From an uncultured Gammaproteobacteria bacterium (GTDB lineage: Bacteria; Patescibacteriota; Microgenomatia; Daviesbacterales; UBA10151): a stretch of 64,000 nucleotides of DNA. Within the stretch, counting starts at the first letter, position 1. Each line of letters starts with the position of its first letter. The DNA lies in contig CAYMRP010000004.1 of the NCBI GenBank assembly GCA_964392925.1, positions 71,184-135,183 on the forward strand, written 5' to 3'. Positions 13,529 through 30,732 of this stretch are shown one piece after another. The notes below the pieces were generated by a model. That model was not told the origin of the DNA, searched no databases, and saw only the letters and a program-made list of their open reading frames with translations. Position numbers and translations under genes: made by a program.

Positions 13529-16500
13529 ATGAATCTGGGAATAGATGTTATGGGTTTAAACATGAGCAATTTAGATATCATCATCCCGGTTAAAAACGAA
13601 GAAGGCAATATTCTTGCCTTAGTCCAGAGAATCAGTCAAGCAATGAAGCTTGGAAATCTTTCCTATAAAATGATTTTCATCGATGATAATTCAAGCGATA
13701 AAACTGTCTCCTCTCTAGAAATACTAAAAAAAATCTATCCAATTGAAATACATCCAAAAAAGGGCAAGCCAGGCAAAGCTTATTCAATAATTGAGGGAGT
13801 CGATTACGCAACCAGCGATAACATCGCCATGATCGATGCCGATCTTCAATACCCCCCAGAAGTTTTGCCTCAAATGCTCAAACAATTAGCAGATTCAGGG
13901 GTAGTAATCGCCCGCCGGAAAACAGCCCAGGGCTCAAAGTTGCGAAGATTCGTCAGTAAAGCTTTTACCAATGTATTTGGCGGCCTTCTTCACAACCTAA
14001 ACGTTGATGTTCAATCAGGACTCAAAGTCTTCAAAAAAGAAGTAATTGAAAAAATAGACCCCAAGAAAATAACACCTTGGACTTTAGACCTCTCACTGGT
14101 TTTAGTTGCCCGGGATTTAGGATTAGGCATTTCAGAAGTTGATATTGAATTTGATAAAAGAAAAAATGGTAATTCAAAAGTAAGTTTAGTCAGAACTTCA
14201 ATTGAAATCGGCAAAAACGCTTTAAAGCTTAAGTTCTTTAGAAAAAGACAATTCACTATTAAACCAACTAAAGAAAACTCCATGATCGGTGGAGGCATAA
14301 TACTTAAGGGTAAAAAATATATTACTCACACCACCTTAGAAGATAAGCATCTCGCTCTCAAAACATTTAGCACCACCCAAAAGTTCATTATTGGCTCACT
14401 AGTTACCGCTGCCATAGTTGGTTTAATCACAAATCCTCTTGCTGCAATTTTAACTATAGTCGCGATTCTCAGCGTAATTTATTTTATTGACGTTGTTTTT
14501 AATATTAGTGTTGTTCTGAAGAGTCTTCATTTTCCGCCAGAAATTAAAATACCCTCGGAAGACATCGAGGCTGTAGATGATAGTAAATTACCAACCTATA
14601 CAATTCTCTGTCCTCTCTATCGAGAAGCGGATGTATTGCCGCAGTTTTTGGAGTCTATCGAAAAACTTGATTGGCCTAAAAGTAAGCTTGATGTCATACT
14701 TTTACTTGAGGAAGATGATAAAGAGACTGTCGCTGAAATTAGTAAAAAAAGACTTCCATATTACGTCAGGGCTTTAATTACTCCCGACTCTCAGCCTAAA
14801 ACAAAGCCCAAGGCCTGTAACTACGGTTTAGCCCATGCTAACGGTGAATACCTAGTTATTTATGATGCCGAAGATCGACCTGATCCAGACCAATTAAAAA
14901 AGGCCTATCTCGGCTTTAAAAATTCCGGATCTAAAATTGTCTGCTTGCAGGCAAAATTGAACTATTTTAATCCTCACCAAAATTTACTCACCCGTTTCTT
15001 TACCGCTGAATATTCACTCTGGTTCGATGTTATGCTACCGGGACTCCAGTCTATTAATACTGTGATCCCTCTGGGCGGTACCTCAAATCACTTCAGAACC
15101 GCCACCTTAAGAGATCTCGAAGGATGGGATCCATTCAACGTCACAGAGGATTGTGACTTAGGAGTGAGAATCTTTAAAAAAGGCTGGTCAACAGCAATTA
15201 TCGATTCAATAACTCTAGAAGAAGCCAATTCAAATTGGGCTAATTGGATCAGGCAGCGTTCAAGATGGCTCAAAGGTTATATGCAAACCTACCTGGTTCA
15301 TATGCGTAATCCTTTCAGTTTTATTGCTCAAAACGGCTGGCACGCTTTTGTTTTTCAACTAATTATTGGTGCCCGTATCTCGTTCATGCTTATTAACCCG
15401 ATTCTTTGGTTAACGACTCTTTCCTATTTTGCTCTCTACGCCTATGTTGGTCCGGCAATTGAAGAGATTTTTCCTTCAGCAATATTCTATATGGCGGTCT
15501 TTTCTCTTTTAGTCGGTAACTTCTCATATATCTATAACTACATGATAGGTGCCTTAAAGCGCGAGCACTATTCGCTTATTAAGTTCATTTTCTTGATCCC
15601 AATCTATTGGCTGGTGGCATCCTACGCAGCTGGAGTGGCTGCTTATCAATTAATTGTTAAACCTCACTATTGGGAAAAAACTGTCCACGGTCTCCATATC
15701 AAAAAAATGACTATAGAGAGTATAAAAGAAGAAATACTGCCCACGCTTACTGCCGATTTAATTAAGCCCTCTGACGGAAGAATGTCATTCTACAAGAAGC
15801 TATCCTTACCAAAAGCTTTAATACCAAGTGCAATTTACACCTTAGCTACTTTTATCTCAGGGATTCTTAACCTAGGATTTAATGTCTTCTTAGGTAGAGT
15901 AATCAGCTTTGAGAACTTAGCGACCTTAAGTTTAGTAAGCAGTTTTTTGTATTTTTCTTCAGTGCCTCAGAACTCCTTACTAAGCACTATCACCCATAAA
16001 GTTGGTTATCTAGAAGGTAAAGGTAAGTTAACATCAGCACTTCATTTTTTTAAACAGGCAACAAATAGATCGCTTTTAATATCTTTTATTGCCTCGGCTG
16101 CATGGCTTTTTTCAATTCCCTTTCTAATGGATTATTTCCAATCAGATGATATATTTCCTTTTCTTCTCTTTACCCCTGTTTGGACACTTGGTACGGTTTT
16201 CGCTCTGATGAAGGGGTTTTTAGTAGGGAGATTAATGCTTGCCAGAGTAGGGTTTATTCTTTTTGCTGAAACTGTATTTAAATTTAGCATAGCGCTCATT
16301 TTTATATATTTTAATCTTTCCCACTGGGCATTTGTTGCTCTACCAGGATCGATTGTGCTCAGCGCAATTCTGATAATTCTTATCTCGGGAAAACTACTTA
16401 AAGTGCCAGAGAATGCTCCACAGTTAAAAAATGAATTTAGCTTTCCTCTTAAGTTCTATTCTGCTTCTGCCCTATCAATACTTGCACCCATTGCCTTTTT

Positions 16501-18274
16501 AAGTATGGATGTCCTCTTGGCTAAGCACTACTTAGCTCCCGTTGAAGCGGGTAAGTACGCCTTGCTTTCTGTCATTGGAAAAATCATTTTCTTTATGGGT
16601 GCATTAGCTAATCAGCTAGTGCTGCCTCTGGTTAGTCGAAATGAGGGCGCGGGTCGAAGTTCAGAAAAGTTTCTTGGCTGGGTATTTATTGGAACATTCT
16701 TAGTCACAAGTCTGGGCTTCATTTTCTGGGGTTTACTTGGAGGCTATACAGTACCTCTAGTTTTCGGAGAAAAAGCCAATGAAATAACACAATTCTTAGA
16801 AATATTCACTTTTACAATGATATGTTTCTCACTCTCAAGAGTATTAGTGTCTTATTTTCTGGCCAAAAAAGTTTACACCTTCCCTATTGTTTCATCTCTA
16901 ATTGTTATTCTCCAATTCGCTTTAATTTATTTTAATCATTCCGACTTAGGGTCAATAGTTTTTGATATGTTCTTGGTCGGAGTAATTGATTTACTTGCTA
17001 TGGCTATTCTTTATTTATTCTTGCCGTATGTAAAAATATTTGAAAATAATGTTAGCGATTTATTTGGATTATTTACCCGATCACTTCCTTTTAGTAAAGC
17101 TGAAGCTAACAAAAAAGTCCGAATTCTCATATTCAATTGGAGAGATATCAGCCATGTCTGGTCTGGTGGAGCAGAGAACTATATTCATGAATTAGCAAAA
17201 CTTTGGGTGGAACAGGGTTATCAGGTAACTATTTTTTCAGGTAACGATAACTTAAGTAAACGGTATGAAGTTTTAGACGGTGTACAAATAGTTAGAAGGG
17301 GTGGGTTCTATACAGTCTACTTCTGGGCAGTTTTATATTATATTTTCCGTTTCCGCGGTCTATATGATTTAGTTATAGATTCTGAAAACGGCATCCCTTT
17401 CTTTACGCCTCTATACGTTGGAAAAGCAAAGCTTTTATTAATTCATCATATCCACCAAGAAGTTTTCAGAAATCACCTTTCTTTGCCACTGGCAATTTTT
17501 GCATCATTCCTTGAAGGCAAACTTATGCCATTTATTTATAAAAATCAAAAAGTTATAACAGTTTCTGAATCTTCAAAGCAGGAAATCTTAAAACTGGGCA
17601 AGGATGTATTTGGTGCAATTGAAATTGTTAATCCTGGAATTCACACTCATAAATTCCTCACCCTAAAGAAAACAACAAATCCATCATTCTTATATCTCGG
17701 CCGACTGCAGCCTTACAAGAATATTGAAGTAGCAATTAAAGCATTCGCACAAGTTATTTCTAAATACCCTGATGCCACTTTAACAATTGCCGGTTTTGGT
17801 GAAAGTCTGATATCTCTTAAAAAACTAGCCGGCCAATTATCAATAGAAAAATCAGTTATTTTTACTGGCCGTGTCACTGATGAGAGGAAGTACGAGCTGT
17901 TATCAGAAAGCTGGGTTATGCTTCAGCCCTCAATGATTGAAGGCTGGGGGATCACTGTTATAGAAGCAAATGCGTCCGGAACTCCTGTAATCGCCTCAAA
18001 TGTTAACGGTCTTCGTGATTCAGTTGTCGATGGTAGAACCGGCATGTTAGTTAGACCAAAAGATGTTCAGATGTTTGCCCGGGTCATGACAGATCTTATT
18101 GAAAATAAAGAATTTAGAGATTACTTATCAGCTCAGGGAATTAAGTGGTCACAAAATTTTTCTTGGAAAAAACAGGCTGAAAAATATACTCACATTATAG
18201 AAGAGACCCTCTCTGATCATACCAAGAAAGGTATAAATTTAACAAAATCATGGAGTTTAAATTTTAGAAAGTAA
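13529..18274 (+). CDS. Giant multidomain glycan synthase: GT2 (polyprenyl-P-sugar synthase-like) + processive GT2 (QxxRW) + polysaccharide-exporter-like TM domain + GT4
   Basis: A single 1581-aa ORF without internal stops. Domain 1: IIIPVKNEEGNI...FIDDNSSD...DADLQYPP. Domain 2: YTILCPLYRE...DAEDRPD...TEDCDLGVRIF...QRSRWLKGYMQ. Then about 14 predicted TM helices (polysaccharide biosynthesis/Wzx-like). C-terminal GT4: EGWGITVIEANASGTPVIAS. An alternative start is the ATG at 13562 (MSNLDIIIPV). Confidence 0.8.
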   Translation: MNLGIDVMGLNMSNLDIIIPVKNEEGNILALVQRISQAMKLGNLSYKMIFIDDNSSDKTVSSLEILKKIYPIEIHPKKGKPGKAYSIIEGVDYATSDNIAMIDADLQYPPEVLPQMLKQLADSGVVIARRKTAQGSKLRRFVSKAFTNVFGGLLHNLNVDVQSGLKVFKKEVIEKIDPKKITPWTLDLSLVLVARDLGLGISEVDIEFDKRKNGNSKVSLVRTSIEIGKNALKLKFFRKRQFTIKPTKENSMIGGGIILKGKKYITHTTLEDKHLALKTFSTTQKFIIGSLVTAAIVGLITNPLAAILTIVAILSVIYFIDVVFNISVVLKSLHFPPEIKIPSEDIEAVDDSKLPTYTILCPLYREADVLPQFLESIEKLDWPKSKLDVILLLEEDDKETVAEISKKRLPYYVRALITPDSQPKTKPKACNYGLAHANGEYLVIYDAEDRPDPDQLKKAYLGFKNSGSKIVCLQAKLNYFNPHQNLLTRFFTAEYSLWFDVMLPGLQSINTVIPLGGTSNHFRTATLRDLEGWDPFNVTEDCDLGVRIFKKGWSTAIIDSITLEEANSNWANWIRQRSRWLKGYMQTYLVHMRNPFSFIAQNGWHAFVFQLIIGARISFMLINPILWLTTLSYFALYAYVGPAIEEIFPSAIFYMAVFSLLVGNFSYIYNYMIGALKREHYSLIKFIFLIPIYWLVASYAAGVAAYQLIVKPHYWEKTVHGLHIKKMTIESIKEEILPTLTADLIKPSDGRMSFYKKLSLPKALIPSAIYTLATFISGILNLGFNVFLGRVISFENLATLSLVSSFLYFSSVPQNSLLSTITHKVGYLEGKGKLTSALHFFKQATNRSLLISFIASAAWLFSIPFLMDYFQSDDIFPFLLFTPVWTLGTVFALMKGFLVGRLMLARVGFILFAETVFKFSIALIFIYFNLSHWAFVALPGSIVLSAILIILISGKLLKVPENAPQLKNEFSFPLKFYSASALSILAPIAFLSMDVLLAKHYLAPVEAGKYALLSVIGKIIFFMGALANQLVLPLVSRNEGAGRSSEKFLGWVFIGTFLVTSLGFIFWGLLGGYTVPLVFGEKANEITQFLEIFTFTMICFSLSRVLVSYFLAKKVYTFPIVSSLIVILQFALIYFNHSDLGSIVFDMFLVGVIDLLAMAILYLFLPYVKIFENNVSDLFGLFTRSLPFSKAEANKKVRILIFNWRDISHVWSGGAENYIHELAKLWVEQGYQVTIFSGNDNLSKRYEVLDGVQIVRRGGFYTVYFWAVLYYIFRFRGLYDLVIDSENGIPFFTPLYVGKAKLLLIHHIHQEVFRNHLSLPLAIFASFLEGKLMPFIYKNQKVITVSESSKQEILKLGKDVFGAIEIVNPGIHTHKFLTLKKTTNPSFLYLGRLQPYKNIEVAIKAFAQVISKYPDATLTIAGFGESLISLKKLAGQLSIEKSVIFTGRVTDERKYELLSESWVMLQPSMIEGWGITVIEANASGTPVIASNVNGLRDSVVDGRTGMLVRPKDVQMFARVMTDLIENKEFRDYLSAQGIKWSQNFSWKKQAEKYTHIIEETLSDHTKKGINLTKSWSLNFRK

Positions 18275-18276
18275 TT

Positions 18277-18840
18277 ATGGGAAAAACGATATCAATCATC
18301 TTACGAGTCTTTAAAAAAACACAAGCCAAAATATATACCAGATTTTGGAAACTATTTCTAAAATCCTTAGGGAAATACAGTGTTCTATATCCTGGGAGCA
18401 CCTTTGCCGGGGCATGTAATATCCAAATAGGTCATCACGTATTTATTCATCAGGGAGCACATTTATATACTGGCGGCAGCAAAATTACCATTGGGAACTA
18501 CGTACTCATTGGTAGAAACTGCTCAATTATCGCCGCCAACAGAGACTATGCGAATTGGACTCGGCCTATTTATTTTGGTACAGAATATGTGAAAAAACCT
18601 GTAGTTATAAAAGATGATGTTTGGATTGGTGAACGGGTAATTATTACCGCTGGTGTGACCGTTGGGCGAGGAGTTGTAATAGGTGCGGGTTCAATCGTAA
18701 CAAAAGATGTACCTGATTTCGCTATTGTTGCTGGTGTTCCTGCCAAGTTAATTAAATATCGATTTGATAAAAAAACTATTCAGCGAGCGATGCGGATAGA
18801 CTTGTCCAAATTCAAAGATATCAAAAAGGAGAAAAAATAA
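18277..18840 (+). CDS. Hexapeptide-repeat (LbH) sugar O-acetyltransferase
   Basis: Left-handed beta-helix hexapeptide repeats (IGRNCSIIAAN...VWIGERVIITAGVTVGRGVVIGAGSIVTKDVPDFAIVAGVPAKLI), like WbbJ or maltose acetyltransferase. Confidence 0.85.
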   Translation: MGKTISIILRVFKKTQAKIYTRFWKLFLKSLGKYSVLYPGSTFAGACNIQIGHHVFIHQGAHLYTGGSKITIGNYVLIGRNCSIIAANRDYANWTRPIYFGTEYVKKPVVIKDDVWIGERVIITAGVTVGRGVVIGAGSIVTKDVPDFAIVAGVPAKLIKYRFDKKTIQRAMRIDLSKFKDIKKEKK

Positions 18841-20198
18841 TGTCCGGAATAATTACTAGAATTTCTACTTTGGCTTCCAAAAACAAACTTATAACTACAG
18901 CTGGATTATTTGTGGCAGCCTCGATGTTGGCAAATATATTCAATTGGCTTTTAAGTATCCTAGCCGGCCGGGTTTTAGATACAGATGAATTTGCAGTCTA
19001 CGCTGTTTTTGTAAGCATATTAGGCATTCTGTCTGTTCCCTCAAACGCTTTAGCAACAACAATCAGCAGATACTATGCTTATTATTCGGGAAAAGAGAGC
19101 AGTTCAGATATTAAAGCTTTGATTAACTATTATAAAAAAGTAGCGCTGATTTTAGGAGTTCTTGGTGTCCTTATAGTCTATTTCACAAACGACTATATCA
19201 GAGCTTTTTTAAAGCTACCATCAGATAGCATGGTCGTTGGGTTTGCACCCGTTGCTTTCTTTCTTTTTACGGCGGCTTACTTCAGAGGAATTTTAAAAGG
19301 AAAACTAAAATTCGGCATAGTTGGACTGATGATGATAGTAGAAACATTTACTAAGCTGATACTTTTATTCTCCGGATACATGTTAAACCTTCCTGTTCTC
19401 GTAATAGCCATCATTTCCTTACCACTTTCTTGGTCGCTTGCATCTCTGATCGGGTTTTTAGCTACTTTTGAAAACGATGATAAGACTAGAATCACAAAGA
19501 AAACAGGAACCTTAGAATTTTCAAAATTAGATAGTCATTTTTTTATGACAAACGCTTTTTTTGCTAGTGTTGGTATGATGCTAATGAATAGTGTCGATAT
19601 TTTGCTAGTAAAACATTATTTTTCCGATTTTGAAGCTGGAACTTATGCTCTATTAAGCCTTTTCGGGAAAATTCTTTACTTTGGAGGTGGAAGCTTCATA
19701 GAATTATTTGTTCCACTCACCGCTAAGTCACATGCGAAAAATTCTAACAGTAGAAATCAATTTTTTAAACTTCTCGTATTGGTATCATCAGTAGCGATCC
19801 CCACACTAATTCTATTTCTTTCATTCCCAAACTTCACAACATACCTATTCTTAAAGGATAAAGGCTACCTAGTAATTCCGTATTTGGCACCTTATCTTAT
19901 TGCAACAACATTCCTGCTTTATACCAATTGTTTTAATGCATATAACACGGCTAAAAAACATTTCATCTCGACATACCTGATAACTGCGATGGCATTAGTC
20001 CAGGGAGCTTTGATTATGATATGGCACAAATCGCTTACTGATATTGTAAACATTGTTCTTTTCACTCAAGTTGTACTTTTTGTACTAGTTCTGTTTTATG
20101 AATTTTTTATATCTCCAAAACACTCTGAAGAAAAATCAACTTCGTCACTATGGACAAAATGGTCTCCAATTTGGGAAAGGACTAACAACAATGTCTAA
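18840..20198 (+). CDS. Polysaccharide biosynthesis protein / Wzx-type (MOP superfamily) flippase
   Basis: 452 aa with about 12 predicted TM helices in the typical Wzx layout; adjacent to GT genes. Confidence 0.65.
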   Translation: MSGIITRISTLASKNKLITTAGLFVAASMLANIFNWLLSILAGRVLDTDEFAVYAVFVSILGILSVPSNALATTISRYYAYYSGKESSSDIKALINYYKKVALILGVLGVLIVYFTNDYIRAFLKLPSDSMVVGFAPVAFFLFTAAYFRGILKGKLKFGIVGLMMIVETFTKLILLFSGYMLNLPVLVIAIISLPLSWSLASLIGFLATFENDDKTRITKKTGTLEFSKLDSHFFMTNAFFASVGMMLMNSVDILLVKHYFSDFEAGTYALLSLFGKILYFGGGSFIELFVPLTAKSHAKNSNSRNQFFKLLVLVSSVAIPTLILFLSFPNFTTYLFLKDKGYLVIPYLAPYLIATTFLLYTNCFNAYNTAKKHFISTYLITAMALVQGALIMIWHKSLTDIVNIVLFTQVVLFVLVLFYEFFISPKHSEEKSTSSLWTKWSPIWERTNNNV

Positions 20199-21195
20199 AA
20201 CTTTATTAGTACAACAGCAACAGCTCCACTTTTTCTTGGTGATGCTTATGTCGTTATTCAGAAAAAAACAAACAGCCATCTCGCCTCTCCCAGCTTTAGT
20301 AAATGGCTTCGCTCTAGAGAGGGAGCTAAATTCAGGTGAGTTAATAAAGCCTCACAGAATAGGAATATACAAAAATGATCGCGGACAAAAAGGTGTAGTT
20401 AAATGGTGGAGTGGAAACAAAAAAACATTTGCAGCTATATCATTAGAGAATGAACTTTCAATGGCCAAATTATTAGAGAAATTAAACCATCGGACAATTA
20501 AAAATCAAAAACCAAATTTGACTCAAATTGGAAGTGCACATGTTATCACAAGTAGAGTAAATGAAAAAACAGTTTTTATAATGTCTGAATTTCATGAGGG
20601 AAAACTTCTTAGAGAAGTAGCAAAGGCGATCCAGATTAAAGAGTATAAACGGGCACTAAACTATTTAAGTAGTCTATCTGGCAATTTAACCCAAATTGAA
20701 ATTGACGCGCTTCCCAAGAGAACATATATTGATTACCTATTGCTTTACCCAGCTTTGTTAAGTGTCTCTATTCTAAGACAACCGAGATATTTTTGGACAT
20801 TTATAAAAGGCCTGCCCCCAGTACTTTTCTCACTTACAAAAATTAGAAAACATCCTTTAACCATAGTGCATCGAGATCTTCACACAATGAATATTATCTA
20901 TTCTCCATCTCGCACAACCATCATCGATCTACAGCGTGCTGTTCTAACTTACGGGTTATATGAGCTGGTAACAACTTTAGCAGTTGAATGGGACAACAAG
21001 GAATTACGTCAGGCGATTCTAGATTATATTTACTCATCATATTCGAATTCTTTAACTATCTTTAGAGGACTAATGATTTATTTTGCAACTCATGCTCTGA
21101 CTGCCAATAACTTGCCGGAGTATTATCTTAGCCGCTACAAAGCAATGCTTAACTTCGCGGTCTATAAATATTCCAACTATTATTTAAAAACATGA
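20191..21195 (+). CDS. Kinase-fold phosphotransferase (APH/choline-kinase-like) within the glycan locus
   Basis: Catalytic-loop-like IVHRDLHTMNIIY followed by IIDLQ (the HxDxxxxN...D pattern of APH/ChoK/Kdo-kinase folds). The track start at 20098 overlaps the upstream gene by 100 nt; the ATG at 20191 is more likely. Confidence 0.5.
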   Translation: MSKTLLVQQQQLHFFLVMLMSLFRKKQTAISPLPALVNGFALERELNSGELIKPHRIGIYKNDRGQKGVVKWWSGNKKTFAAISLENELSMAKLLEKLNHRTIKNQKPNLTQIGSAHVITSRVNEKTVFIMSEFHEGKLLREVAKAIQIKEYKRALNYLSSLSGNLTQIEIDALPKRTYIDYLLLYPALLSVSILRQPRYFWTFIKGLPPVLFSLTKIRKHPLTIVHRDLHTMNIIYSPSRTTIIDLQRAVLTYGLYELVTTLAVEWDNKELRQAILDYIYSSYSNSLTIFRGLMIYFATHALTANNLPEYYLSRYKAMLNFAVYKYSNYYLKT

Positions 21196-22097
21196 AAACA
21201 AAAAAAACATTAACTATTTGTATACCCGCATTTAATGAGGCAGAAAATCTAAAAAAACTGCTTCCATCCCTACTCGCTCAAAAAAGGTCAACTTACATTC
21301 TTTCTAAAATAATAGTAGCCTCTGATGCAAGCACTGACACTATATATAATGTGGTAAAGAAAATAGGAAGCAAAAAAATAAATGTTATACATGGAAAGGA
21401 GAGAAAAGGTGTCGCTTATCGTCAAAATCAATTATTAGAAAAATCGACCTCTGATATTGTAGTTCTTCTTAATGCTGACATCGCTGTTATCGATTTCAGA
21501 TATATTGAGAAATTAGTTGCTCCAATTATAAAAAATAAAGCCGATATGACTTCATCAGCTCTCATGGAAACAAGTCCCCGCACTTTTTTCGAAAAAGCCC
21601 TATATACCAGCATGCAAGCAAAAAAATATGCTTTCAATAAATTCAAAGACGGAAATAATGTCTATACCTGTCGCGGACCTGCAAGAGCTTTTAGTAAAAA
21701 TCTCTATAAAATAATTCGTTTCCCTTCTGGTATCGGGGAGGATGCATACTCCTACCTTTTTACAATCAAACGAGGCATGCGATTTATCGCTGTTAAAAAC
21801 GCTACAGTCTACTATTCCTTGCCCACAACCTTTAAAGATCACAAAAGACAAAGCCTGCGTTACCTGAGTTCTAAATCAAATTTTACTTCCAAATTTGGCG
21901 AAAAGTTTGTCAAAGATGAATACAACCTTCCCCTAAAATATATATTGGAAGCAGCTCTGTTCTACTCAATGTCGAATCCTATCTATATGCTTTGCTACTT
22001 CATGATCTTCATGCAAATAAATCTTAGATCTCTATTCAAAAACACCCAGAGTGAAACATGGGAGGTGGCAACAAGTTCAAAGTTGCTAAATGTATAA
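21192..22097 (+). CDS. Glycosyltransferase family 2
   Basis: The N-terminus LTICIPAFNEAENL and DxD-type motifs (VASDASTD, LNADI) are typical of GT2. Confidence 0.8.
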   Translation: MKTKKTLTICIPAFNEAENLKKLLPSLLAQKRSTYILSKIIVASDASTDTIYNVVKKIGSKKINVIHGKERKGVAYRQNQLLEKSTSDIVVLLNADIAVIDFRYIEKLVAPIIKNKADMTSSALMETSPRTFFEKALYTSMQAKKYAFNKFKDGNNVYTCRGPARAFSKNLYKIIRFPSGIGEDAYSYLFTIKRGMRFIAVKNATVYYSLPTTFKDHKRQSLRYLSSKSNFTSKFGEKFVKDEYNLPLKYILEAALFYSMSNPIYMLCYFMIFMQINLRSLFKNTQSETWEVATSSKLLNV

Positions 22098-22905
22098 AAT
22101 GAAAACCAATCCAATATTTATCATTCGCCGTTATATATACAAAACTCTAAATCTGGTCGATCGCCTTTTTGACAACAATACTAAAGCATTTGTTCTTTGC
22201 TATCACGGAATTGACTCCAGTGACTGGAGGTTTAGTATTTCGCTTATCATGTTCAAAAAACAAATTAAGCATCTGAAAAATGAAGGCTACTCTTTCATAA
22301 CAACTAAAGACATATTGGAATATTGCCAAGGTAAAAAAATTCTACCTAAGCCTAGTGTTGCAATAACTTTCGATGATGGATACAAAAGCATGAAAATAGT
22401 CGCTAAATTTCTCAAAGAAGAAAAAATTGAACCAACCCTATTCCTCCTCTCTCAAACAGTAAAACCTAACTGGAAAGAAATTGGTAAAAAGGACAGTTTC
22501 TTAAATTTCTCTGAGATAAAATCCTTGGAAAGAAATGGCTGGTTAATGGGAAGTCACAGCAGCACACATGCTAACCTTTCAGAGCTATCAAAAGAAGAGT
22601 TGGTAAATGAAATCTCAAATTCTAAAAAAGTGTTAGAACAAAAGCTTAAGAAATCTATTTCAGATTTTGCATACCCAAGAGGTAAATACAATGATTCCGT
22701 ACTAAAGCAAGTAAAAAAAGCTGGATTTAAAGCGGGTTGGACTATGGACGATGGATTTTTGGGTCCACAAACAAACTTACTTCAAATACCCAGAATAGGA
22801 GTTGACAGAACCCATTCCTTAGAAGAGTTTAAAACGCTATTCAGCCCATCGGCAATATTAATGCGAAAACTTATAAAACAATCTCCCATAGGAGGATTAC
22901 TATGA
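22090..22905 (+). CDS. Polysaccharide deacetylase (NodB homology domain, CE4)
   Basis: NodB motifs: TFDDGY (motif 1) and HSSTHANLSEL (His motif). Confidence 0.85.
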   Translation: MYKMKTNPIFIIRRYIYKTLNLVDRLFDNNTKAFVLCYHGIDSSDWRFSISLIMFKKQIKHLKNEGYSFITTKDILEYCQGKKILPKPSVAITFDDGYKSMKIVAKFLKEEKIEPTLFLLSQTVKPNWKEIGKKDSFLNFSEIKSLERNGWLMGSHSSTHANLSELSKEELVNEISNSKKVLEQKLKKSISDFAYPRGKYNDSVLKQVKKAGFKAGWTMDDGFLGPQTNLLQIPRIGVDRTHSLEEFKTLFSPSAILMRKLIKQSPIGGLL

Positions 22906-24074
22906 AAAGTAAACAAATTGATGTTGTAGTGAAATATTTTCACCCTGTTGCGGCGGGTATAGAAACTAACATACTTAATACATATAGTGTGCTTGCCCAA
23001 ATGGGTTGGGATGTTCGTATTCACACATCTACAAACACTCACACGGGTAAGGACATACTTCCAAAATTCGAAATAATCAGAGGCTTAAAAGTATATCGCT
23101 ATAAACATCATTGGTATGGAATACAGCCTAATATAGACTATACGAAAACTTCTTTAGTTTGTATCCATAATTTTAATATCTTTCCTCATATTCAAATAAT
23201 GACTAAAGCGATACTGGGTAACCTAACGAAAACAAAGAAGTACGGGCTGGTCTTGACCCCTCACGGGGGTTACACTCCTGATTGGAACGTTTTTGGACCA
23301 ATATCAAAACAAATTAAGAAAATCTATCACAGAACCCTAGGTAAAATTCTTATTAATTTATCTTGTGATGCAATAAGAGCAGTCTCAGTATGGGAGAAAG
23401 ACCAAATAATTAGCCAGGGAGTTAATAAAGATATTATTCAAGTTATAACAAATGGGGTAGAGAATGAAGCATTTGTAGATTTAAATAAAGAAGCAAGTAA
23501 ACAGGTCAAGAATCTCGCTCACTCATTAGGCGACTATATAATCCAGGTTGGAAGAATATACCCAATTAAAAACTACGAAACGACAATTCGAGCTCTTAGT
23601 CTGATCCCAGGTAACCTAAAATATGCTATTACTGGAGCAGATTCAGAGAAATCCGGTTATTTTAATTCCCTCAAAAAATTAATTAAATCGTTGGGGCTTG
23701 AAGAAAGAGTTGTCTTCACGGGAGTCATTTCCGGGGTCGATAAATTCTATCTCATGAATAAAGCCCAGATGATGGTCCATATGGCACATTGGGAGAGTTT
23801 TTGTAATGTGGTTCACGAAGGAATGAGCCAAGGATTAGTCTGTATCGTGGCCAACAATACTGCACTTCCATATCTAATAAAAAATAATGTGAACGGATAC
23901 TGTGTTGAAACTTTTGACTATAAATCTTTAGCAAGCAAGATTGAATATGTCATAAAAAACAAAAACAAGAAAGAAATTATTCAAATCGAAAAGAATAATA
24001 AAAATATTGGTTCTCAGGAAACTTGGGGTGCAGTTGCTGAAAAAATGAATAACTTGTATCTAAAGCTAATATGA
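22902..24074 (+). CDS. Glycosyltransferase family 4 (group 1)
   Basis: GT-B architecture with the C-terminal motif HMAHWESFCNVVHEGMSQGLVCIV (E-X7-E-like). Confidence 0.75.
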   Translation: MKSKQIDVVVKYFHPVAAGIETNILNTYSVLAQMGWDVRIHTSTNTHTGKDILPKFEIIRGLKVYRYKHHWYGIQPNIDYTKTSLVCIHNFNIFPHIQIMTKAILGNLTKTKKYGLVLTPHGGYTPDWNVFGPISKQIKKIYHRTLGKILINLSCDAIRAVSVWEKDQIISQGVNKDIIQVITNGVENEAFVDLNKEASKQVKNLAHSLGDYIIQVGRIYPIKNYETTIRALSLIPGNLKYAITGADSEKSGYFNSLKKLIKSLGLEERVVFTGVISGVDKFYLMNKAQMMVHMAHWESFCNVVHEGMSQGLVCIVANNTALPYLIKNNVNGYCVETFDYKSLASKIEYVIKNKNKKEIIQIEKNNKNIGSQETWGAVAEKMNNLYLKLI

Positions 24075-24964
24075 AAAAGAAATTAAAAATATCAATCGCT
24101 ATACCTACTTACGAAGCCGGAGAAAGTCTTGTTGTCACACTCCGCTCTATCTACAATCAAACTTTTTATTCGGAAATAGATAAAATTTATGTGGCTATAG
24201 ATGGTAATAAGATAAAAAGCAAAATCATGAATAAAATAAAAAATCCAAAGCTGAGTCTACTTCACTATAAAAGAAGAGAAGGCCAAGCCCAAAGAATTAA
24301 TAATTTATTCAAAAAATCGAGTTCTGACATTTTGGTATTAACCAACGATGATATCTACTTAACCAATACCTTAGTCGAGGAAATTGTCCGCACTTATAAT
24401 GGTGACCTGATATTAGGAAATGTCCTAGGTATCAAGCCTCAGACATTCATTGAGAGACTCGTCTTGGTAGGAGCAAATATTAATAAAAGAGTCGCAGAAT
24501 CCTGGAATTCAGGCGACAATTATCTTTCCTGCAACGGCAGACTGATCATACTTTCTAAAAAATTATATAAAAGAATAGAGCTGCCGAAAACAATTTGGAA
24601 TAGTGATGCTTATATTTATTTCTATGCAAAAAAACTTAAATCTGAAGTTAATATCGGCAAAGAACTAAAAGCATATTTCAGAGCTCCTAGCAATCTTGAA
24701 GAGCATATTAAGCAGAGTGATAAGTTTCAAATGTCTCGGGAGGAAAATATGTCTTATTTTAAAGAGGATATATCTAAACAATACGACATACCTAAAGCTC
24801 TAAAATTTAAATCCCTCATTCTTGAATTCCTATTAAACCCAGTGATTACTTTTTGCTACGTACTTATTTATATCTATACAAGAACCCATAGAAAATACTA
24901 TAATATACAACATAAGGATTTTTGGGAAACTGATAAAACAACTAAGCAATTGAAAATATCATGA
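24071..24964 (+). CDS. Glycosyltransferase family 2
   Basis: ISIAIPTYEAGESL at the N-terminus, a DGNK/TNDDIYL DxD region, and a C-terminal TM helix. Confidence 0.75.
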   Translation: MKKKLKISIAIPTYEAGESLVVTLRSIYNQTFYSEIDKIYVAIDGNKIKSKIMNKIKNPKLSLLHYKRREGQAQRINNLFKKSSSDILVLTNDDIYLTNTLVEEIVRTYNGDLILGNVLGIKPQTFIERLVLVGANINKRVAESWNSGDNYLSCNGRLIILSKKLYKRIELPKTIWNSDAYIYFYAKKLKSEVNIGKELKAYFRAPSNLEEHIKQSDKFQMSREENMSYFKEDISKQYDIPKALKFKSLILEFLLNPVITFCYVLIYIYTRTHRKYYNIQHKDFWETDKTTKQLKIS

Positions 24965-26511
24965 AAAAAATAATTACTTCAATACTATTAATAATCTTCA
25001 GTTTCGTAATTCTAACTCTTTCTATAAGGGGCATAGCTGGTAATCCTAGTGATGCTACCATTAACGAACCGTACTGGAAAGATAATGGTCCTTTAGAGCT
25101 CTCACCTGAAAGAGGTAAATTTGCTCTGACATATTCCTTCGTTGAGGATAATTCTGTTCATTTCTCGGTTCCAATAGCAAAATTCTCGACACCCGACTTA
25201 GGTTATAGTAAAGGTAATTATGTCTCACTTTTTGCACCAGGCGTAGCCTATATAACAATACCAGGATATATTATAGGTAAGGAATTTGGCTCTTCGCAAG
25301 TTGGCACTTATGCTGTAATAGCATTATTCGCGATAATGAACGCAGCCTTAATAAATTTAATCCTCCTAAGGCTTGGTGTAAGGAGTATTTTATCTGCTAT
25401 AAGTAGTATCATTTTTCTATTCGCGACACCGGCTTTCGCATATGCCGTATCTCTATATCAGCATCATATATCCACATTTATAATACTTCTAAGTGTATAT
25501 CTGCTGCAAAGATTTAAAGGAATTTGGCCACTGGTAATTATATGGTTTATCTTAGCCATATCTTTAGCAGTAGATAATCCAAATCTTTTTATGGTTTTCC
25601 CGATCGGGATATATGCATTAGGGCGAGTAGTTTACGCAAAAATTGATCAGAACAAGGTTAAGGTAGGAGTGAAGACATTAGCAGTTCTGACTTTAGTCAC
25701 TGCTTTAGTCCCTCTTTTACTTTTCGGGTGGTTCAACAAAATATCTTATGGCGACGCTATGAGACTTGGAGGTACTGTGGCATCGGTTAAAGAAATAGAT
25801 GAACAAGGTAAGCCAGCTGCTCCAAAAAATACAGGAACAACTAATGTTGCCCAGTTTATCAATCCTGATCAGCAAAAAAAGTCAGCTCTCAGATTCTTTA
25901 AGACCAGAAATATATTAAACGGCTTTTATATTCATTTTATTAGTCCTGACAGAGGCATTATATATTTTACACCGGTCATACTATTGGGTTTCATTGGAAT
26001 GTTTTATTTTTACAGGAAAGATTCGGGATTAACGTCTCTTCTTATTGCAATCATGGGAACAAATATCCTGCTGTATTCTATGTGGGGTGATGCATGGGGA
26101 GGATGGGCGTTTGGTTCGAGATATTTAGTACCTTCTTATGCAATACTCGCCATTTTCCTTGGTGTCGCCCTAAACAGGTTCCATCGGAATATTATATTTA
26201 TACTTGTGTTCTTATCTCTTTTTGTATATTCGGCAGCTATAAATACCGTAGGTGCTATTACTTCCAATAGAAATCCTCCTCAGGTTGAAGTTTTGGGTCT
26301 GGAGCAGCTAACAGGCAAACAAGAAAAATACACTTATGAAAGAAATTTTGACATGCTAGGCATTAATCAATCTAAATCTTTTGTATTTAATACTACAGTT
26401 AACAAATATTTCACTGCATGGGAATACTACTATTTCCTGACGGGGCTAATTATTCTCTCAGTGGCATTGCCATTAATTACACTTAACGCACTAGACTGGA
26501 GAAGAAAATGA
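24961..26511 (+). CDS. Polytopic membrane protein, putative GT-C-fold glycosyltransferase (ArnT/PMT-like)
   Basis: 516 aa with more than 10 predicted TM helices, a first extracytoplasmic loop carrying an acidic motif (FVEDNS), and a location beside a polyprenyl-P-sugar synthase-like GT2. The assignment rests on topology and context only. Confidence 0.45.
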   Translation: MKKIITSILLIIFSFVILTLSIRGIAGNPSDATINEPYWKDNGPLELSPERGKFALTYSFVEDNSVHFSVPIAKFSTPDLGYSKGNYVSLFAPGVAYITIPGYIIGKEFGSSQVGTYAVIALFAIMNAALINLILLRLGVRSILSAISSIIFLFATPAFAYAVSLYQHHISTFIILLSVYLLQRFKGIWPLVIIWFILAISLAVDNPNLFMVFPIGIYALGRVVYAKIDQNKVKVGVKTLAVLTLVTALVPLLLFGWFNKISYGDAMRLGGTVASVKEIDEQGKPAAPKNTGTTNVAQFINPDQQKKSALRFFKTRNILNGFYIHFISPDRGIIYFTPVILLGFIGMFYFYRKDSGLTSLLIAIMGTNILLYSMWGDAWGGWAFGSRYLVPSYAILAIFLGVALNRFHRNIIFILVFLSLFVYSAAINTVGAITSNRNPPQVEVLGLEQLTGKQEKYTYERNFDMLGINQSKSFVFNTTVNKYFTAWEYYYFLTGLIILSVALPLITLNALDWRRK

Positions 26512-28166
26512 TAAAAATAAATAAGTTAGCTGAAATAGAAATAGAGCTTAATGTCTCTTTACTAGACAAAATTAAAGATTTTTTCTCTAAGTATGGACTC
26601 TACTTCATAATTTTAATACTTTCAGGCATTTCCGTAGGCGGATTTCTATACTTTCTTGAAAACGGATTAGGGCTCGCATACAACGATGCCAGATCCCATT
26701 TAAATATTGGCCGAAGAGTAGTAGAAGGGTTAAAGCCAGGTTTCGCCCAAATTGGTAGTGTCTGGTTACCTCTACCTCACGTTCTAATGATTCCTACAAT
26801 CTGGAATGATTTTATGTGGCACACAGGTTTATCCGGTGCAATTGTCTCGATGTCCTCCTTTATTGGAACAGGTGTATTAGTCTATAAGTTCCTTCAAAAA
26901 CTAGGAGCAGGATTAATGGGTAGATGGATGGGAGTTCTTGTGCTGGTAGCAAACATTAATATTCTATATTTGCAATCTACCGCAATGACTGAACTATTAT
27001 TACTTTTCACAATGACCGCCGCAGCCTACGACCTAATGATCTGGCACCAATCAAGCAGAATTATTAATCTGGTTAAAGCCGCATTTTGGATAATGTTATC
27101 AACTCTCGTCAGATATGATGGTTGGTTCCTATTTTTCGTATCAGTTATTCTTATAGTCATTAATCTTATGCGGGTGGGTAGTTTTAAAATAAAGGATCTC
27201 CCTGCTAAATATTTCAAAATAGAGGGAGTCGTCATTGCTTTCTGTACGTTAGCAGGTCTTGGAGTTTTTCTATGGTTACTATGGAACCTATTAATTTTTA
27301 AAGATCCGTTTTTCTTTGCCTTTGGCCCATACTCAGCTCATGCCCAGCAACAGCAATTAGAAAGTGCGGGGGAGTTAATTACCAAACATGATTGGTTTCT
27401 TTCAGCTAAGTTTTATACATATGCTCTAGCCTATAATTCCGGAGCTTTCTCAGCACTTCTTGGGATATTTGGGTTAGTAGCTATTTGGTTCGATAAGAAG
27501 CTATTAACACCGGTAAAATTTGCAGTGTTTGCTTTAGTTGCACCACTTTTATTCAATATATTAGCATTATACCTTGGGCATTCAGTTCTATTTATCCAAG
27601 GACTTTCTGGTGATGTCTGGTTCAATGTCCGATACGGCATTATGATGATGCCATCAATAGCAATCTTTATTGGTTTTCTTATCGATAGGGTTAAGAATCT
27701 TAGAGCAGTCCTTATCGGGCTTTTACTACTTACGATTTTCTTCCAGTTCCAAAACTTTGATGCAGTTACTATTGATGATGCCAGAGTTGGATCTTCTCAG
27801 AAAAATGTCAGCGAAGTATCAGATTGGCTATCTCAAAATGCTAAAGATAGGGATGGGTTCATTTTAATCTCAGCAGCCTCACACGACGCTATTATTTTTT
27901 CATCTGGATTACCAATGAAAAAATTTATCCATGAAGGTACCGGCAGATATTGGGAATCCGCAACAACAAATCCTGAAAGATGGGCAAGATGGATTATTGC
28001 CAGAACTCATGACAATAACGATTCTACGTGGAGAGCTGTATCGCAAACTCCAGATATTAATAACTATATTCTTGTTAAGTCTTACCCGTTTGCAGATATC
28101 TACGAACTAAAGCCAGAGTTCCTCCCTAACCTCAATACAAAACCTATCTTAGGCAAGCAAAAGTAG
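26508..28166 (+). CDS. Polytopic membrane protein, putative GT-C-fold glycosyltransferase
   Basis: 552 aa with an N-terminal block of about 11 TM helices and a C-terminal soluble extracytoplasmic domain; translationally coupled to the preceding gene. Confidence 0.45.
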   Translation: MIKINKLAEIEIELNVSLLDKIKDFFSKYGLYFIILILSGISVGGFLYFLENGLGLAYNDARSHLNIGRRVVEGLKPGFAQIGSVWLPLPHVLMIPTIWNDFMWHTGLSGAIVSMSSFIGTGVLVYKFLQKLGAGLMGRWMGVLVLVANINILYLQSTAMTELLLLFTMTAAAYDLMIWHQSSRIINLVKAAFWIMLSTLVRYDGWFLFFVSVILIVINLMRVGSFKIKDLPAKYFKIEGVVIAFCTLAGLGVFLWLLWNLLIFKDPFFFAFGPYSAHAQQQQLESAGELITKHDWFLSAKFYTYALAYNSGAFSALLGIFGLVAIWFDKKLLTPVKFAVFALVAPLLFNILALYLGHSVLFIQGLSGDVWFNVRYGIMMMPSIAIFIGFLIDRVKNLRAVLIGLLLLTIFFQFQNFDAVTIDDARVGSSQKNVSEVSDWLSQNAKDRDGFILISAASHDAIIFSSGLPMKKFIHEGTGRYWESATTNPERWARWIIARTHDNNDSTWRAVSQTPDINNYILVKSYPFADIYELKPEFLPNLNTKPILGKQK

Positions 28167-28175
28167 TATTCTAAT

Positions 28176-29186
28176 ATGATCAAAAAAGTATTAATAGTCT
28201 CAGCTATAACAATAGTCATATTCTTGTTATTCTCCTACTTCAACTCAAAAATTGAAGAATATCATAAAGAATCTGCTCTAAAAAGAATTCATCTGTGGGA
28301 TTTTCGTTCGGTTGATACTGTAAAATATTCAAGAGATCTCGCACGCGAAATGATGGAGGATCAAGAATTCGATACCATTATTAGTAAACAAGTTAGTGAC
28401 ATAGCATTGCTAGGAGCTTCACATATTGCCATAAGTACTCCATACGATGCCGAATTCCTACCTTTCCTGAAAAGATGGGTTACCGTTGCAAGAGAGAAGA
28501 ATCTTAAAGTCTGGTTTAGAGGTAATTTTTCAGGCTGGGAAAATTGGTTTGGCTACGAAAGAATGACCAGAGAAGAACATAAAATATTACTCAAAGAGTT
28601 TATTGAAAATAATCCTGGTCTATTTGAAGATGGAGACATTTTTACCTCATGTCCTGAATGCGAGAACGGTGGACCAGGGGACCCGAGGCATAATGGTGAT
28701 GTAATAGGACATCGTAAATTCCTAATTGATGAATACAATATTTCTAAAGAATCATTTGCCAATATTGATAAGCAAGTTCAGCCTGGTTTTTATTCTATGA
28801 ATTATGATGTCGCAACTCTAGTTATGGATGAGGATACAACAAATAAGCTCGGAAACTTAGTAGTTATTGATCATTACATCAAAGATCCTGAAAAACTTGC
28901 CAAAGACGCAAGAAAGATAGCTGAGAAATCAAAAGGTGAAGTTGTTCTGGGTGAATTTGGTGCACCGATTCCTGACATACATGGAGCAATGACAGATAAG
29001 GCACAGGCTGACTGGATTAACCAAGCTTTGCAAGAAGTGAGTCTTGTTGAAGAAGTAACTGGTGTAAATTACTGGACTAATGTTGGAGGTTCTACCGAAT
29101 TGTGGAATTCAGGAGGTACTCCCAAAGCAGCTGTAGATATGATAAGAGAATATTATAAAAAAACAAAACTAATATCTCCACGTTGA
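28176..29186 (+). CDS. Membrane-anchored extracytoplasmic protein, possible clan GH-A (TIM-barrel) glycoside hydrolase
   Basis: N-terminal TM anchor and a GEFG motif (VLGEFGAP) resembling the nucleophile strand of GH5-like enzymes. The match is weak. Confidence 0.35.
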   Translation: MIKKVLIVSAITIVIFLLFSYFNSKIEEYHKESALKRIHLWDFRSVDTVKYSRDLAREMMEDQEFDTIISKQVSDIALLGASHIAISTPYDAEFLPFLKRWVTVAREKNLKVWFRGNFSGWENWFGYERMTREEHKILLKEFIENNPGLFEDGDIFTSCPECENGGPGDPRHNGDVIGHRKFLIDEYNISKESFANIDKQVQPGFYSMNYDVATLVMDEDTTNKLGNLVVIDHYIKDPEKLAKDARKIAEKSKGEVVLGEFGAPIPDIHGAMTDKAQADWINQALQEVSLVEEVTGVNYWTNVGGSTELWNSGGTPKAAVDMIREYYKKTKLISPR

Positions 29187-29266
29187 TTTAAACCCATAGT
29201 CGTGATACAATAACCCATAATGTTTTTTATTATGATAAAAAACATGCGAAATTTTTAATAAAACTT

Positions 29267-29905
29267 ATGAAGATAGTGTTCGTTATTTTTCTCGTTATTT
29301 TCAGCCTATTAATTAATTCAGGTCAAGCTCTCGCGTACGAAATACCTACCTTTACCTCCTGTGTTAACCCTCAAGGAGATCTCAAAGCTAACTATGAAAC
29401 TGGTACTCACGGAATTGCTGGCCGTCCAGGATTATTTGAAGGAAAAGACACCGTCTATGCAGTCGCGAGTAACGCCATTACTCAATGCTTTTGCCCAACC
29501 GATGGTAATGGTGTTCAGACAAATTTCTGGAAAATACCCGCTTTGACTCAATCTAAAATTAGTGTTCTTGAGGCTCAGGGTTGGATTTATATTCCCAACG
29601 GAGCATTGTGGGGATTAGAAAACGCTCCGTACCTAGCAAAAAATTCAGACTATAGCTGTAAATCATCAGGTGGAAGTAACGATAGTTCAGGTAGTTCTGG
29701 AGGTAGTAATGGATCTGGATCATCAGGCAGTAATTCTGGAGCTGGGGGCTCCTCATCTCTTTCAGTATCGGGCGGAGTAGGGCAGGTTTTAGGTCTCGCC
29801 TCAACCGGAAATACAATTTTTGTCTTAGGCACTGCTCTAACTTCAGGAATATCCCTGCTTCTGGGCCTTATTCTAAAAAGAAGAACAACAAATTTATCCA
29901 AGTAA
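29267..29905 (+). CDS. Sortase substrate: secreted protein with a Gly/Ser-rich stalk and C-terminal LAxTG (LASTG) sorting signal
   Basis: Signal peptide, a GGSNDSSGSSGGSNGSGSSGSNSGAGGSSS stalk, then LASTG + a hydrophobic stretch + KRRTT at the C-terminus. It lies immediately upstream of the sortase gene. Confidence 0.65.
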   Translation: MKIVFVIFLVIFSLLINSGQALAYEIPTFTSCVNPQGDLKANYETGTHGIAGRPGLFEGKDTVYAVASNAITQCFCPTDGNGVQTNFWKIPALTQSKISVLEAQGWIYIPNGALWGLENAPYLAKNSDYSCKSSGGSNDSSGSSGGSNGSGSSGSNSGAGGSSSLSVSGGVGQVLGLASTGNTIFVLGTALTSGISLLLGLILKRRTTNLSK

Positions 29906-29906
29906 A

Positions 29907-30485
29907 ATGGCAAAATATAATGAGGGTACAAAACTAACTCAGTCTGTTTTTTTAGGTAACCTATTACTTATTTTTGGTCTAATAAGTTTTATAGCCTTCA
30001 GCTACCTGATATTCCAAAGATATAATCCTCAAAACTTAGCTTTTGATTTACCTGAAGCAATCGCCGTCTCTGATAATGAAAATTCTGAACTTCAGCCTAT
30101 TGGTTTAAGAATAAATTCTATAGATTTAGCTCTCTCAATTACTCCTGCGGAAATTAAAAATAATAATTGGCAGGCTTTTCCTAACGCAATTTCCTATCTT
30201 AAAACTACGGTTGTTCCAGGAGCCAAAGGTAATAGCGTTCTGTATGGTCATAACTGGCCAAATCTATTAGGTGATCTAAAAAAAGTAAAACCCGGCGACA
30301 ATATTAATATAATTTACTCAGACAACTCATCAAAAGATTTTGAAATCGAATTTATAACAAAAGTACTTCCTTCCGAAACCTCTATCCTTAAAGATTCACC
30401 AGACAATAGGGTAACTCTTTACACCTGTACCGGATTTCTCGACTCAGAAAGACTAGTGGTTATCGCAAAACTTCTTAATTCTTAA
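29907..30485 (+). CDS. Sortase (class E-like, LAxTG-specific)
   Basis: N-terminal TM anchor, catalytic His (VLYGHNWP), TLxTC motif (VTLYTCTG) and a C-terminal Arg region. The LAxTG substrate is encoded adjacent. Confidence 0.8.
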   Translation: MAKYNEGTKLTQSVFLGNLLLIFGLISFIAFSYLIFQRYNPQNLAFDLPEAIAVSDNENSELQPIGLRINSIDLALSITPAEIKNNNWQAFPNAISYLKTTVVPGAKGNSVLYGHNWPNLLGDLKKVKPGDNINIIYSDNSSKDFEIEFITKVLPSETSILKDSPDNRVTLYTCTGFLDSERLVVIAKLLNS

Positions 30486-30732
30486 TTAGTCCTGTTAGAA
30501 TAGCTCTGTGGCCAAAGCAATAATTAGATTTATCAAAAATGACACAGTTTTTTGGCTATTCTTTATAGTCCTTTGTTTTATTATGCTGACATTTATTATG
30601 AAGAAAGAGGATATAAAAGTAACTATAACTTTGAGTGAGCCTTACGATAATAAAGTGATCACATTATTTGGTCGTTGACTGTGACTGGTCCGCTTGCCAA
30701 AAAAGAATGATAGTGGTATAAAACCTGTTGGG

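Follow-up and report, generated by a model that had tools for sequence, protein, structure and literature searches.

Several described systems resemble parts of the locus analysed here. A sortase with an adjacent target is known from the class GN marine type. Three-component extracytoplasmic glycosylation combines a polyprenyl-phosphate sugar synthase of glycosyltransferase (GT) family 2, a flippase and a GT-C transferase, as in GtrABC, CsbB/GtcA/YfhO and Ppm1/Pmt. The sorting signal LAxTG has been reported for class E sortases, in which a conserved tyrosine of the β3/β4 loop (Y229 of SrtE1) reads the alanine at P3; the hallmarks of the class are this tyrosine, a 21-residue β6/β7 insertion and a long cytoplasmic N-terminus, and the equivalents of Y229 are F92 in CpSrtD and A104 in SaSrtA (Kattke 2016, PMC5148588). 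In the candidate phyla radiation (CPR, or Patescibacteria), the sortase family fam000526 is near-ubiquitous in Microgenomates and patchy in other CPR, according to Meheust 2019 (PMC6744442). Here we analysed a 64,000-nucleotide (nt) stretch of contig CAYMRP010000004.1 (positions 71,184 to 135,183; hereafter the window), which carries a sortase gene and, directly upstream, the gene for a protein with an LAxTG-type sorting signal. The whole is best explained as a co-transcribed sortase and its cognate substrate in Microgenomates (CPR/Patescibacteria), with the enzyme in a clade outside classes A-F and the pair at the end of an envelope cassette, an explanation that we consider likely. The two genes and their parts are located as follows.

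29267-29905, + strand: sortase substrate, 212 amino acids (aa), the open reading frame (ORF) of the initial annotation
29267-29335, + strand: substrate signal peptide, residues 1-23, by inspection
29336-29662, + strand: conserved four-Cys N-domain of the substrate, residues 24-132, modelled with AlphaFold2 (AF2)
29663-29785, + strand: Ser/Gly stalk of the substrate, residues 133-173, by composition
29795-29809, + strand: sorting motif LASTG, residues 177-181, read from the sequence
29813-29902, + strand: hydrophobic segment and KRRTTNLSK tail of the substrate
29907-30485, + strand: membrane-anchored sortase, 192 aa (Pfam PF04203), its ATG 1 nt past the substrate stop codon
within the sortase, + strand: N-terminal transmembrane (TM) helix at residues 13-31 and catalytic domain at about residues 64-192, from the sequence
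30249-30251, 30426-30428 and 30450-30452, + strand: sortase His115, Cys174 and Arg182, invariant in 43 homologues

The 212-aa protein has a signal peptide, a C-terminal pentapeptide, a hydrophobic segment and a basic tail, and is the sole ORF with such a tripartite sorting signal in the window. By inspection only, the n-region of its N-terminus (MKIVFVIFLVIFSLLINSGQALA, followed by YE) is short and basic, residues 3-21 make up a hydrophobic core, and there is an A-x-A site. The AF2 model shows residues 24-132 as a compact globular domain, with a predicted local distance difference test (pLDDT) score of 84-93. The stalk that follows is 41 aa long and contains 18 Ser and 14 Gly. Behind LASTG, the hydrophobic segment covers residues 183-203 (21 residues) and KRRTTNLSK comes after it. 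The initial annotation had proposed this architecture of signal peptide, N-domain, stalk and LASTG sorting signal, and it is borne out by the sequence features, the AF2 model and the conservation of the family. The Gly/Ser character of the stalk holds as well; its length had been put at 35 residues, close to the 41 measured. On closer analysis, the substrate does carry both the signal peptide, as judged by inspection, and the tripartite signal.

The substrate belongs to a previously unannotated family. An earlier word-indexed homologue search with the N-domain gave 4 matches only, and an exhaustive profile search of 1.84 billion representatives revealed the family, which has 354 representatives (50% identity) at E<=1e-3 and 128 at E<=1e-30. 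Most members are 180-230 aa long and share the architecture of the window protein. Pooling the database representatives with genome copies gave 221 non-redundant members. A recognisable sorting signal is present in 186 of these, and many of the others are cut by contig ends. The logo of the 186 signals reads V-L-G-L(87%)-A(91%)-x-T(94%)-G(100%)-N(53%). P3 is Ala in 169 of them and Pro in only 4%, the median distance from the Gly to the C-terminus is 28 residues, and the tail has at least two Lys or Arg in 95%. The NCBIfam model TIGR01167 (LPXTG_anchor) matched 13 of 83 substrate members weakly, and Pfam Gram_pos_anchor matched 5 of 83.

In the N-domain, residues C32, C74, C76 and C131, together with H48, D61, Q73, W87, W106, W115, Y122 and N126, are invariant or near-invariant. 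Searches of Pfam, NCBIfam and the PDB with its sequence gave no match, the PDB hits being artificial Gly/Ser linkers only, and no solved fold was matched by its AF2 model. The stalk varies in length across the family (median 34 residues, range 8-82) and is constant in composition (S 23%, G 23%, T 10%, N 8%). Identity to the window protein is 29-63% for the substrates, compared with 42-64% for the sortases. The head domain is thus about as conserved as the enzyme, suggesting that it has a conserved ligand and is not a fast-evolving, host-specific adhesin.

A few members have other architectures. In P0217 the N-domain is followed by a polytopic C-terminus that replaces the sorting signal, and in P0238, P0263 and P0266 an FN3-like domain lies between the N-domain and a polytopic C-terminus. 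P0125 consists of three tandem N-domains and a SpaA_2-like domain, and ends in LPRTG.

The pairing of substrate and sortase is conserved. A search with the N-domain in one genome per GTDB species yielded 65 loci, 59 of which have enough sequence to test the pairing. The sortase gene lies directly 3' of the substrate gene in 55 of these 59 loci (93%), with gaps concentrated from -4 to +10 nt. In the database protein P0233, substrate and sortase are joined in frame. Conservation does not extend downstream of the pair: the genes for a peptidyl-prolyl isomerase (PPIase), YdjM and NrdR are found there only in the closest relatives, and the PPIase occurs in 5 loci. Across 920 kb of related loci, 69 ORFs carry a tripartite signal, and all but one (68) are members of the substrate family. 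Because the substrate is the sole such ORF in the window and the sortase follows it in 55 of 59 loci, the pair is more than a chance arrangement.

About a quarter of the locus records carry a CPR name. Most of these are Daviesbacteria, Levy(i)bacteria, Woesebacteria, Amesbacteria, Roizmanbacteria and Gottesmanbacteria, all of the Microgenomates group, and a few have other CPR labels (Parcubacteria, Saccharibacteria, 'Patescibacteria group'). The remaining records are mostly titled 'uncultured Gammaproteobacteria' or 'Pseudomonadales', and three are titled Weeksellaceae, Limnocylindrales and Lysobacterales. Such non-CPR titles on records of metagenome-assembled genomes (L009-L073) that hold a Microgenomates-type cassette are probably placeholder or wrong labels.

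The second gene of the pair encodes a sortase with the expected catalytic residues. It matches Pfam Sortase PF04203 (peptidase C60) at E=4.6e-19, with 68.8 bits against a cut-off of 26.6 and over profile positions 1-124 of 125. LYGH115, TLYTC174 and R182 are invariant among the 43 homologues, and in alignments H115, C174 and R182 fall on the catalytic regions of B. anthracis SrtA and C. perfringens SrtD. The Pfam match, the invariant His, Cys and Arg and the family-wide LAxTG signal support the initial proposal of a sortase with a cognate LAxTG-type substrate. After the TM helix, the sortases also share a juxtamembrane motif, QRxNPxxLxF (residues 36-46, nt 30012-30044), in which R38 and P41 are near-invariant and F46 is invariant.

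The NCBIfam class models all scored far below their cut-offs (140-166 bits) on the window sortase. Class F was the best with 39.6 bits against 166, followed by class C (35 against 160), class D (28.1 against 165), SrtD (26.8 against 140), class GN 'marine' (TIGR03784; 26.6 against 158) and class E (NF033747; 26.5 against 160, E=5e-6). None of the 43 family members came near any class cut-off, with best class-model E-values of 4e-14 to 3e-10. The best class E value over the 43 members was 3.3e-10, far below the cut-off, and the class B model matched weakly in 3 of 43. Against PDB sequences, the profile of the sortase family scored 50.6 bits with B. anthracis SrtA (2kw8, class A), 46.8 with the C. 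diphtheriae pilus sortase (5k9a, class C), 46.3 with C. perfringens SrtD (4d70) and only 20.6 with 5utt, which we take to be the class E enzyme A. oris SrtA; no S. coelicolor SrtE1 entry was among the matches. Judged by these sequence comparisons, the sortase most likely represents a Microgenomates-wide clade outside classes A-F, and it is very probably a member of fam000526 of Meheust 2019. Because it groups with no described class, it does not fall into one that fails to accept LAxTG.

In an HMMER sequence alignment, Leu98 falls on F92 of CpSrtD, the S3-subsite column, and a Tyr is found one residue earlier (Y97). Leu98 is invariant in the 43 homologues, and 55 of about 59 sortases paired with LAxTG substrates have Leu there. 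Three substrate members that carry LPxTG instead were looked up, and each has an adjacent sortase, located as follows.

L074, 1275-1679: sortase paired with an LPxTG substrate
L075, 4647-5285: sortase paired with an LPxTG substrate
L076, 4622-5152: sortase paired with an LPxTG substrate

All three of these sortases have Ala in place of the near-invariant Gly114 beside the catalytic His, and in two of the three Leu98 is changed to Val or Ala. These changes may reflect co-variation of enzyme and substrate in specificity.

In most loci the pair closes a five-gene cassette at its 3' end, and in the window this cassette follows a glycan locus.

13529-24964: glycan locus, by Pfam
13529-18274, + strand: 1581-aa GT2-GT2-GT4 fusion in a single ORF, by Pfam; unusually large, at the head of the glycan locus
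24961-26511, + strand: 516-aa polytopic membrane protein, first cassette gene, about 10 hydrophobic segments
26508-28166, + strand: 552-aa polytopic membrane protein, second cassette gene, predicted GT-C fold (AF2/Foldseek)
28176-29186, + strand: 336-aa protein with an N-terminal membrane anchor, directly 5' of the substrate gene, a conserved position

Besides the fusion, the locus at 13529-24964 encodes a hexapeptide acetyltransferase, a Wzx-like flippase, an APH-like kinase, two GT2 enzymes, a GT4 enzyme and a polysaccharide deacetylase according to Pfam, and the initial placement of the pair at the end of a glycan locus is therefore correct. Between this locus and the pair lie the 516-aa, 552-aa and 336-aa genes, which have no Pfam family. 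The order of these three genes, the substrate and the sortase is kept in about 80% of loci, also where the downstream flanks are unrelated. Upstream of the substrate, the 552-aa gene is present in 43 of 52 testable loci and, within 1.5 kb, the 336-aa gene in 44 of 59; GT2 genes are found directly 5' of the cassette in 11 of 33. In about 10-15 loci no cassette is near the pair. Profile searches of the PDB with the three upstream cassette proteins gave no match.

The 552-aa protein is a candidate GT-C-fold glycosyltransferase. It is strongly conserved (63-80% identity) and has at least 1938 homologues, all of them unannotated. Its AF2 model has a predicted TM-score (pTM) of 0.78, with low confidence in the first loop. 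In a Foldseek search of the PDB with this model, the top 33 hits were all GT-C proteins (ALG12, ArnT, STT3/PglB, PMT, Emb) with probabilities of 0.87-1.00, the first 21 at 1.00; the best E-value was 4e-4 and the TM-scores were 0.25-0.47 (0.4-0.5 for the best). The family has an invariant Asp, D60, in a YNDARSH motif directly after TM1. In GT-C enzymes the catalytic acid sits at that place, in the first extracytoplasmic loop after TM1. No Pfam or NCBIfam GT-C family matched the 552-aa protein at threshold, the only sequence-family match being PMT_2 in 1 of 25 members (E=2.2e-5).

The 516-aa protein is conserved upstream of the 552-aa gene. The two form one ORF of about 1070 aa in four loci (L014 1651-4866, L018 3578-6775, L021 1283-4480 and L059 3648-6869), which argues that the two proteins act together. 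The 516-aa protein gave weak GT-C hints, PMT_2 at E=0.009 and Mannosyl_trans4 at E=0.011, each in 1 of 25 members. An hhalign comparison of the 516-aa and 552-aa profiles was not significant, and we therefore do not claim the 516-aa protein as a GT-C enzyme. The 336-aa protein has four invariant Glu residues, E122, E161, E163 and E260, the last in a GEFG motif. Glyco_hydro_cc matched 2 of 25 members (E=0.0023), a weak hint that this protein may be glycoside-hydrolase-like, and longer homologues add a CarboxypepD_reg domain.

Combining these data suggests how the pair could work. Our observations comprise the genes, their motifs, the assigned folds and the conserved gene order; the steps that follow are modelled on the established sortase mechanism. 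The 212-aa protein would be exported by Sec and its signal peptide removed, while the C-terminal hydrophobic segment and basic tail would retain it in the membrane. Cys174 of the sortase would then attack LASTG between Thr180 and Gly181, and the substrate would be passed to an amine of a cell-wall (peptidoglycan) precursor. A flexible Ser/Gly stalk some 40 residues long would then hold the small four-Cys head above the wall. As the pair is the usual 3' end of a five-gene cassette with a putative GT-C enzyme, the anchored protein may work with, or be modified by, extracytoplasmic glycosylation. The stalk is rich in Ser, Thr and Asn and the pair is persistently linked to this enzyme, so that O-glycosylation of the stalk by the cassette is an attractive and plausible hypothesis. 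A more far-reaching version is that the five genes form a dedicated pathway for the main surface glycoprotein of Microgenomates. GT-C enzymes, with lipid-linked sugar from the upstream GT2 enzymes and flippase, would O-glycosylate the Ser/Gly/Thr/Asn stalk outside the membrane, and a seventh, CPR-specific class of sortase, having acquired LAxTG specificity separately from class E, would anchor the protein to the wall. The conserved four-Cys head would have a new fold and recognise a conserved ligand, either the cell's own glycan or the surface of a host. We regard this version as speculative and rather unlikely.

The sorting motif alone would suggest another assignment, which had been made initially: a class E sortase, of the actinobacterial housekeeping type, acting on a typical LAxTG substrate of that class. 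A sorting signal of this form has been reported for class E (Kattke 2016, PMC5148588), and the class E model does match weakly, at E=5e-6. However, its 26.5 bits are far from the cut-off of 160 and lower than the scores of classes F, C and D. The family profile gives 5utt (presumably A. oris SrtA) 20.6 bits, versus 46-51 for the class A, C and D structures, and Leu98 occupies the column of Y229 and F92. Sortase residues 146-187 align with residues 107-148 of B. anthracis SrtA without gaps, indicating that the 21-residue β6/β7 insertion of class E is absent. With 192 aa, the enzyme also lacks a long cytoplasmic N-terminal region. Class E was rejected on model score, Leu98, the missing insertion and the short N-terminus, and we consider it very improbable. 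Since the class E motif is shared but every tested feature of the class E enzyme failed, the sortase is better placed in a separate, CPR-typical clade. Its LAxTG specificity appears to have been reached independently of class E, because a Leu replaces the class E Tyr and the insertion is absent, pointing to an independent route to Ala at P3. A further reading, for which the initial annotation had pointed to proposals on such pairs in CPR-like organisms, is that the pair builds a sortase-polymerised pilus or fibre for host attachment; the substrate would then be a pilin joined head to tail through a lysine. Dedicated sortase-substrate gene pairs are typical of Gram-positive pilus loci, pili-like appendages are seen on CPR cells in published micrographs, and class C is the second-best class model (35 bits). 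The features of sortase-assembled pilins, an Ig-like CnaA/CnaB fold and a pilin-motif Lys, are nevertheless absent from the substrate. The prediction of its N-domain structure, with a pLDDT of 84-93, gave no solved fold, pilin-like or other, no lysine is conserved above 70% in the family, and a YPK-type pilin motif is lacking. The loci have one sortase and one substrate without accessory pilins, the long disordered stalk is unlike pilin shafts, and the CPR pili discussed in the accessible parts of the literature (PMC6744442 and PMC5220378 among the sources) are type IV. A pilin fold and a pilus were rejected for want of a solved-fold match, a conserved lysine and a YPK-type motif, and polymerisation of the substrate is hardly credible.

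A general housekeeping sortase with many substrates across the genome is a somewhat better alternative, with the linkage to the glycosyltransferase cassette being mere clustering of envelope genes. CPR genomes often have several proteins with sortase motifs (PMC5220378), the pair stands without a nearby cassette in about 10-15 loci, and a large LPATG protein is found in L048. Yet the substrate family adjoins the sortase in 93% of testable loci over deep lineages, next to a downstream side that varies, substrate and enzyme are conserved to a similar degree (29-63% and 42-64% identity to the window proteins, respectively), the two are fused in frame in P0233, and the cassette order is retained in 43 of 52 loci. 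We judge a general housekeeping role to be improbable. A dedicated sortase-substrate pair of Microgenomates at the end of an envelope cassette remains our preferred interpretation, and several points weigh against it. Four of the 59 testable loci have no adjacent sortase by phmmer, the LPATG protein of L048 (1617 aa) lies near the pair, and the sortase may serve other substrates too, in line with the several sortase-motif proteins of CPR genomes. We infer the cleavage, the acceptor nucleophile and the P3 preference all from sequence. The co-variation with LPxTG substrates is only a lead, since it comprises three cases, two of which are related.

Several further features of the window may bear on this system.

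29183-29211, + strand: promoter-like site TTGATT-17-TACAAT with TG extension, within the 80-nt gap 5' of the substrate gene
30508-30678, + strand: 56-aa ORF with a single TM segment, directly after the sortase gene
9965-10639, + strand: VanW-domain protein, just 5' of the glycan locus
12558-13439, + strand: D-Ala-D-Ala carboxypeptidase (Peptidase_S11), just 5' of the glycan locus
2343-3113, + strand: membrane-anchored DsbA/Thioredoxin_4 protein

In a promoter and terminator scan of the region, the number of sites did not exceed the shuffled expectation, and the promoter-like site at 29183-29211 is for that reason weak and a mere lead. The 56-aa ORF is conserved only in the closest relatives (L001-L005, L009 and L010; phmmer E 1e-19 to 1e-29). 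In actinobacteria, a small TM protein, SafA, is the genetically linked partner of the housekeeping sortase (PMC9282373); the FPW motif of SafA is absent from the 56-aa ORF, which is an uncertain member of the sortase system. The protein at 2343-3113 is likely an MdbA-like disulfide oxidoreductase, a kind reported as enriched in CPR by Meheust 2019 (PMC6744442). It could form disulfides in the four-Cys head of the substrate. Together with the D-Ala-D-Ala carboxypeptidase, it fits an oxidising wall compartment with peptidoglycan; the VanW-domain protein and the carboxypeptidase likewise fit a peptidoglycan-containing envelope.

The CPR, or Patescibacteria, make up a large share of bacterial diversity, and their envelopes and surface proteins are almost unknown. 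For one major CPR lineage, our analysis provides a concrete candidate surface protein, widely conserved and predicted to be covalently anchored to the wall, together with the enzyme that would attach it and a linked module with a candidate GT-C glycosyltransferase. It also suggests that sortases acquired the LAxTG preference on more than one occasion, using different S3-subsite residues, a point relevant to the encoding of sortase specificity and to the engineering of sortases for protein ligation. Searches of Pfam, NCBIfam and the searchable literature did not turn up the substrate family, its near-universal LAxTG-N signal in a lineage with a non-class-E sortase, the different S3-column residue or the five-gene cassette. 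Pairs of a sortase and a neighbouring cognate substrate are well known in kind, and the progress made here is gradual unless the coupling to glycosylation is real.

Among the known systems, the class E sortases (SrtE1/SrtE2 of S. coelicolor with the chaplins, and SrtA of A. oris) share with this pair the LAxTG motif with Ala at P3, the hydrophobic segment and basic tail, and an enzyme of the membrane-anchored Cys transpeptidase type with a His-Cys-Arg triad. In contrast to them, the window sortase is not a member of class E by sequence, has Leu98 for the Tyr, and is without the 21-residue insertion and the long cytoplasmic N-terminus; the organism is a CPR bacterium and not an actinobacterium, and the substrate domain is unrelated to the chaplins. 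A. oris also offers a precedent for glycosylation coupled to sorting, as its sortase substrate GspA is glycosylated before anchoring, via an LCP enzyme (PMC6381275). Dedicated single-target pairs, such as SrtB-IsdC and the class GN 'marine' type (TIGR03784), are similar in that a sortase and one variant-motif substrate adjoin and are co-inherited. The window pair differs from the marine type in its score (26.6 bits against 158), its LAxTG-N motif, its new substrate family and its setting within a putative GT-C cassette. For fam000526, the accessible text of Meheust 2019 (PMC6744442) gives the distribution of the enzyme only and does not describe a cognate substrate family, an LAxTG signal or a cassette. 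Finally, the cassette and the three-component glycosylation systems have in common the GT-C fold with an Asp after TM1, which is predicted here, an upstream GT2 (11 of 33 loci) and a Wzx-like flippase in the locus. The cassette differs from these systems in having no GT-C family at the Pfam or NCBIfam threshold, and its candidate acceptors are the protein stalk, a wall polymer or a lipid.

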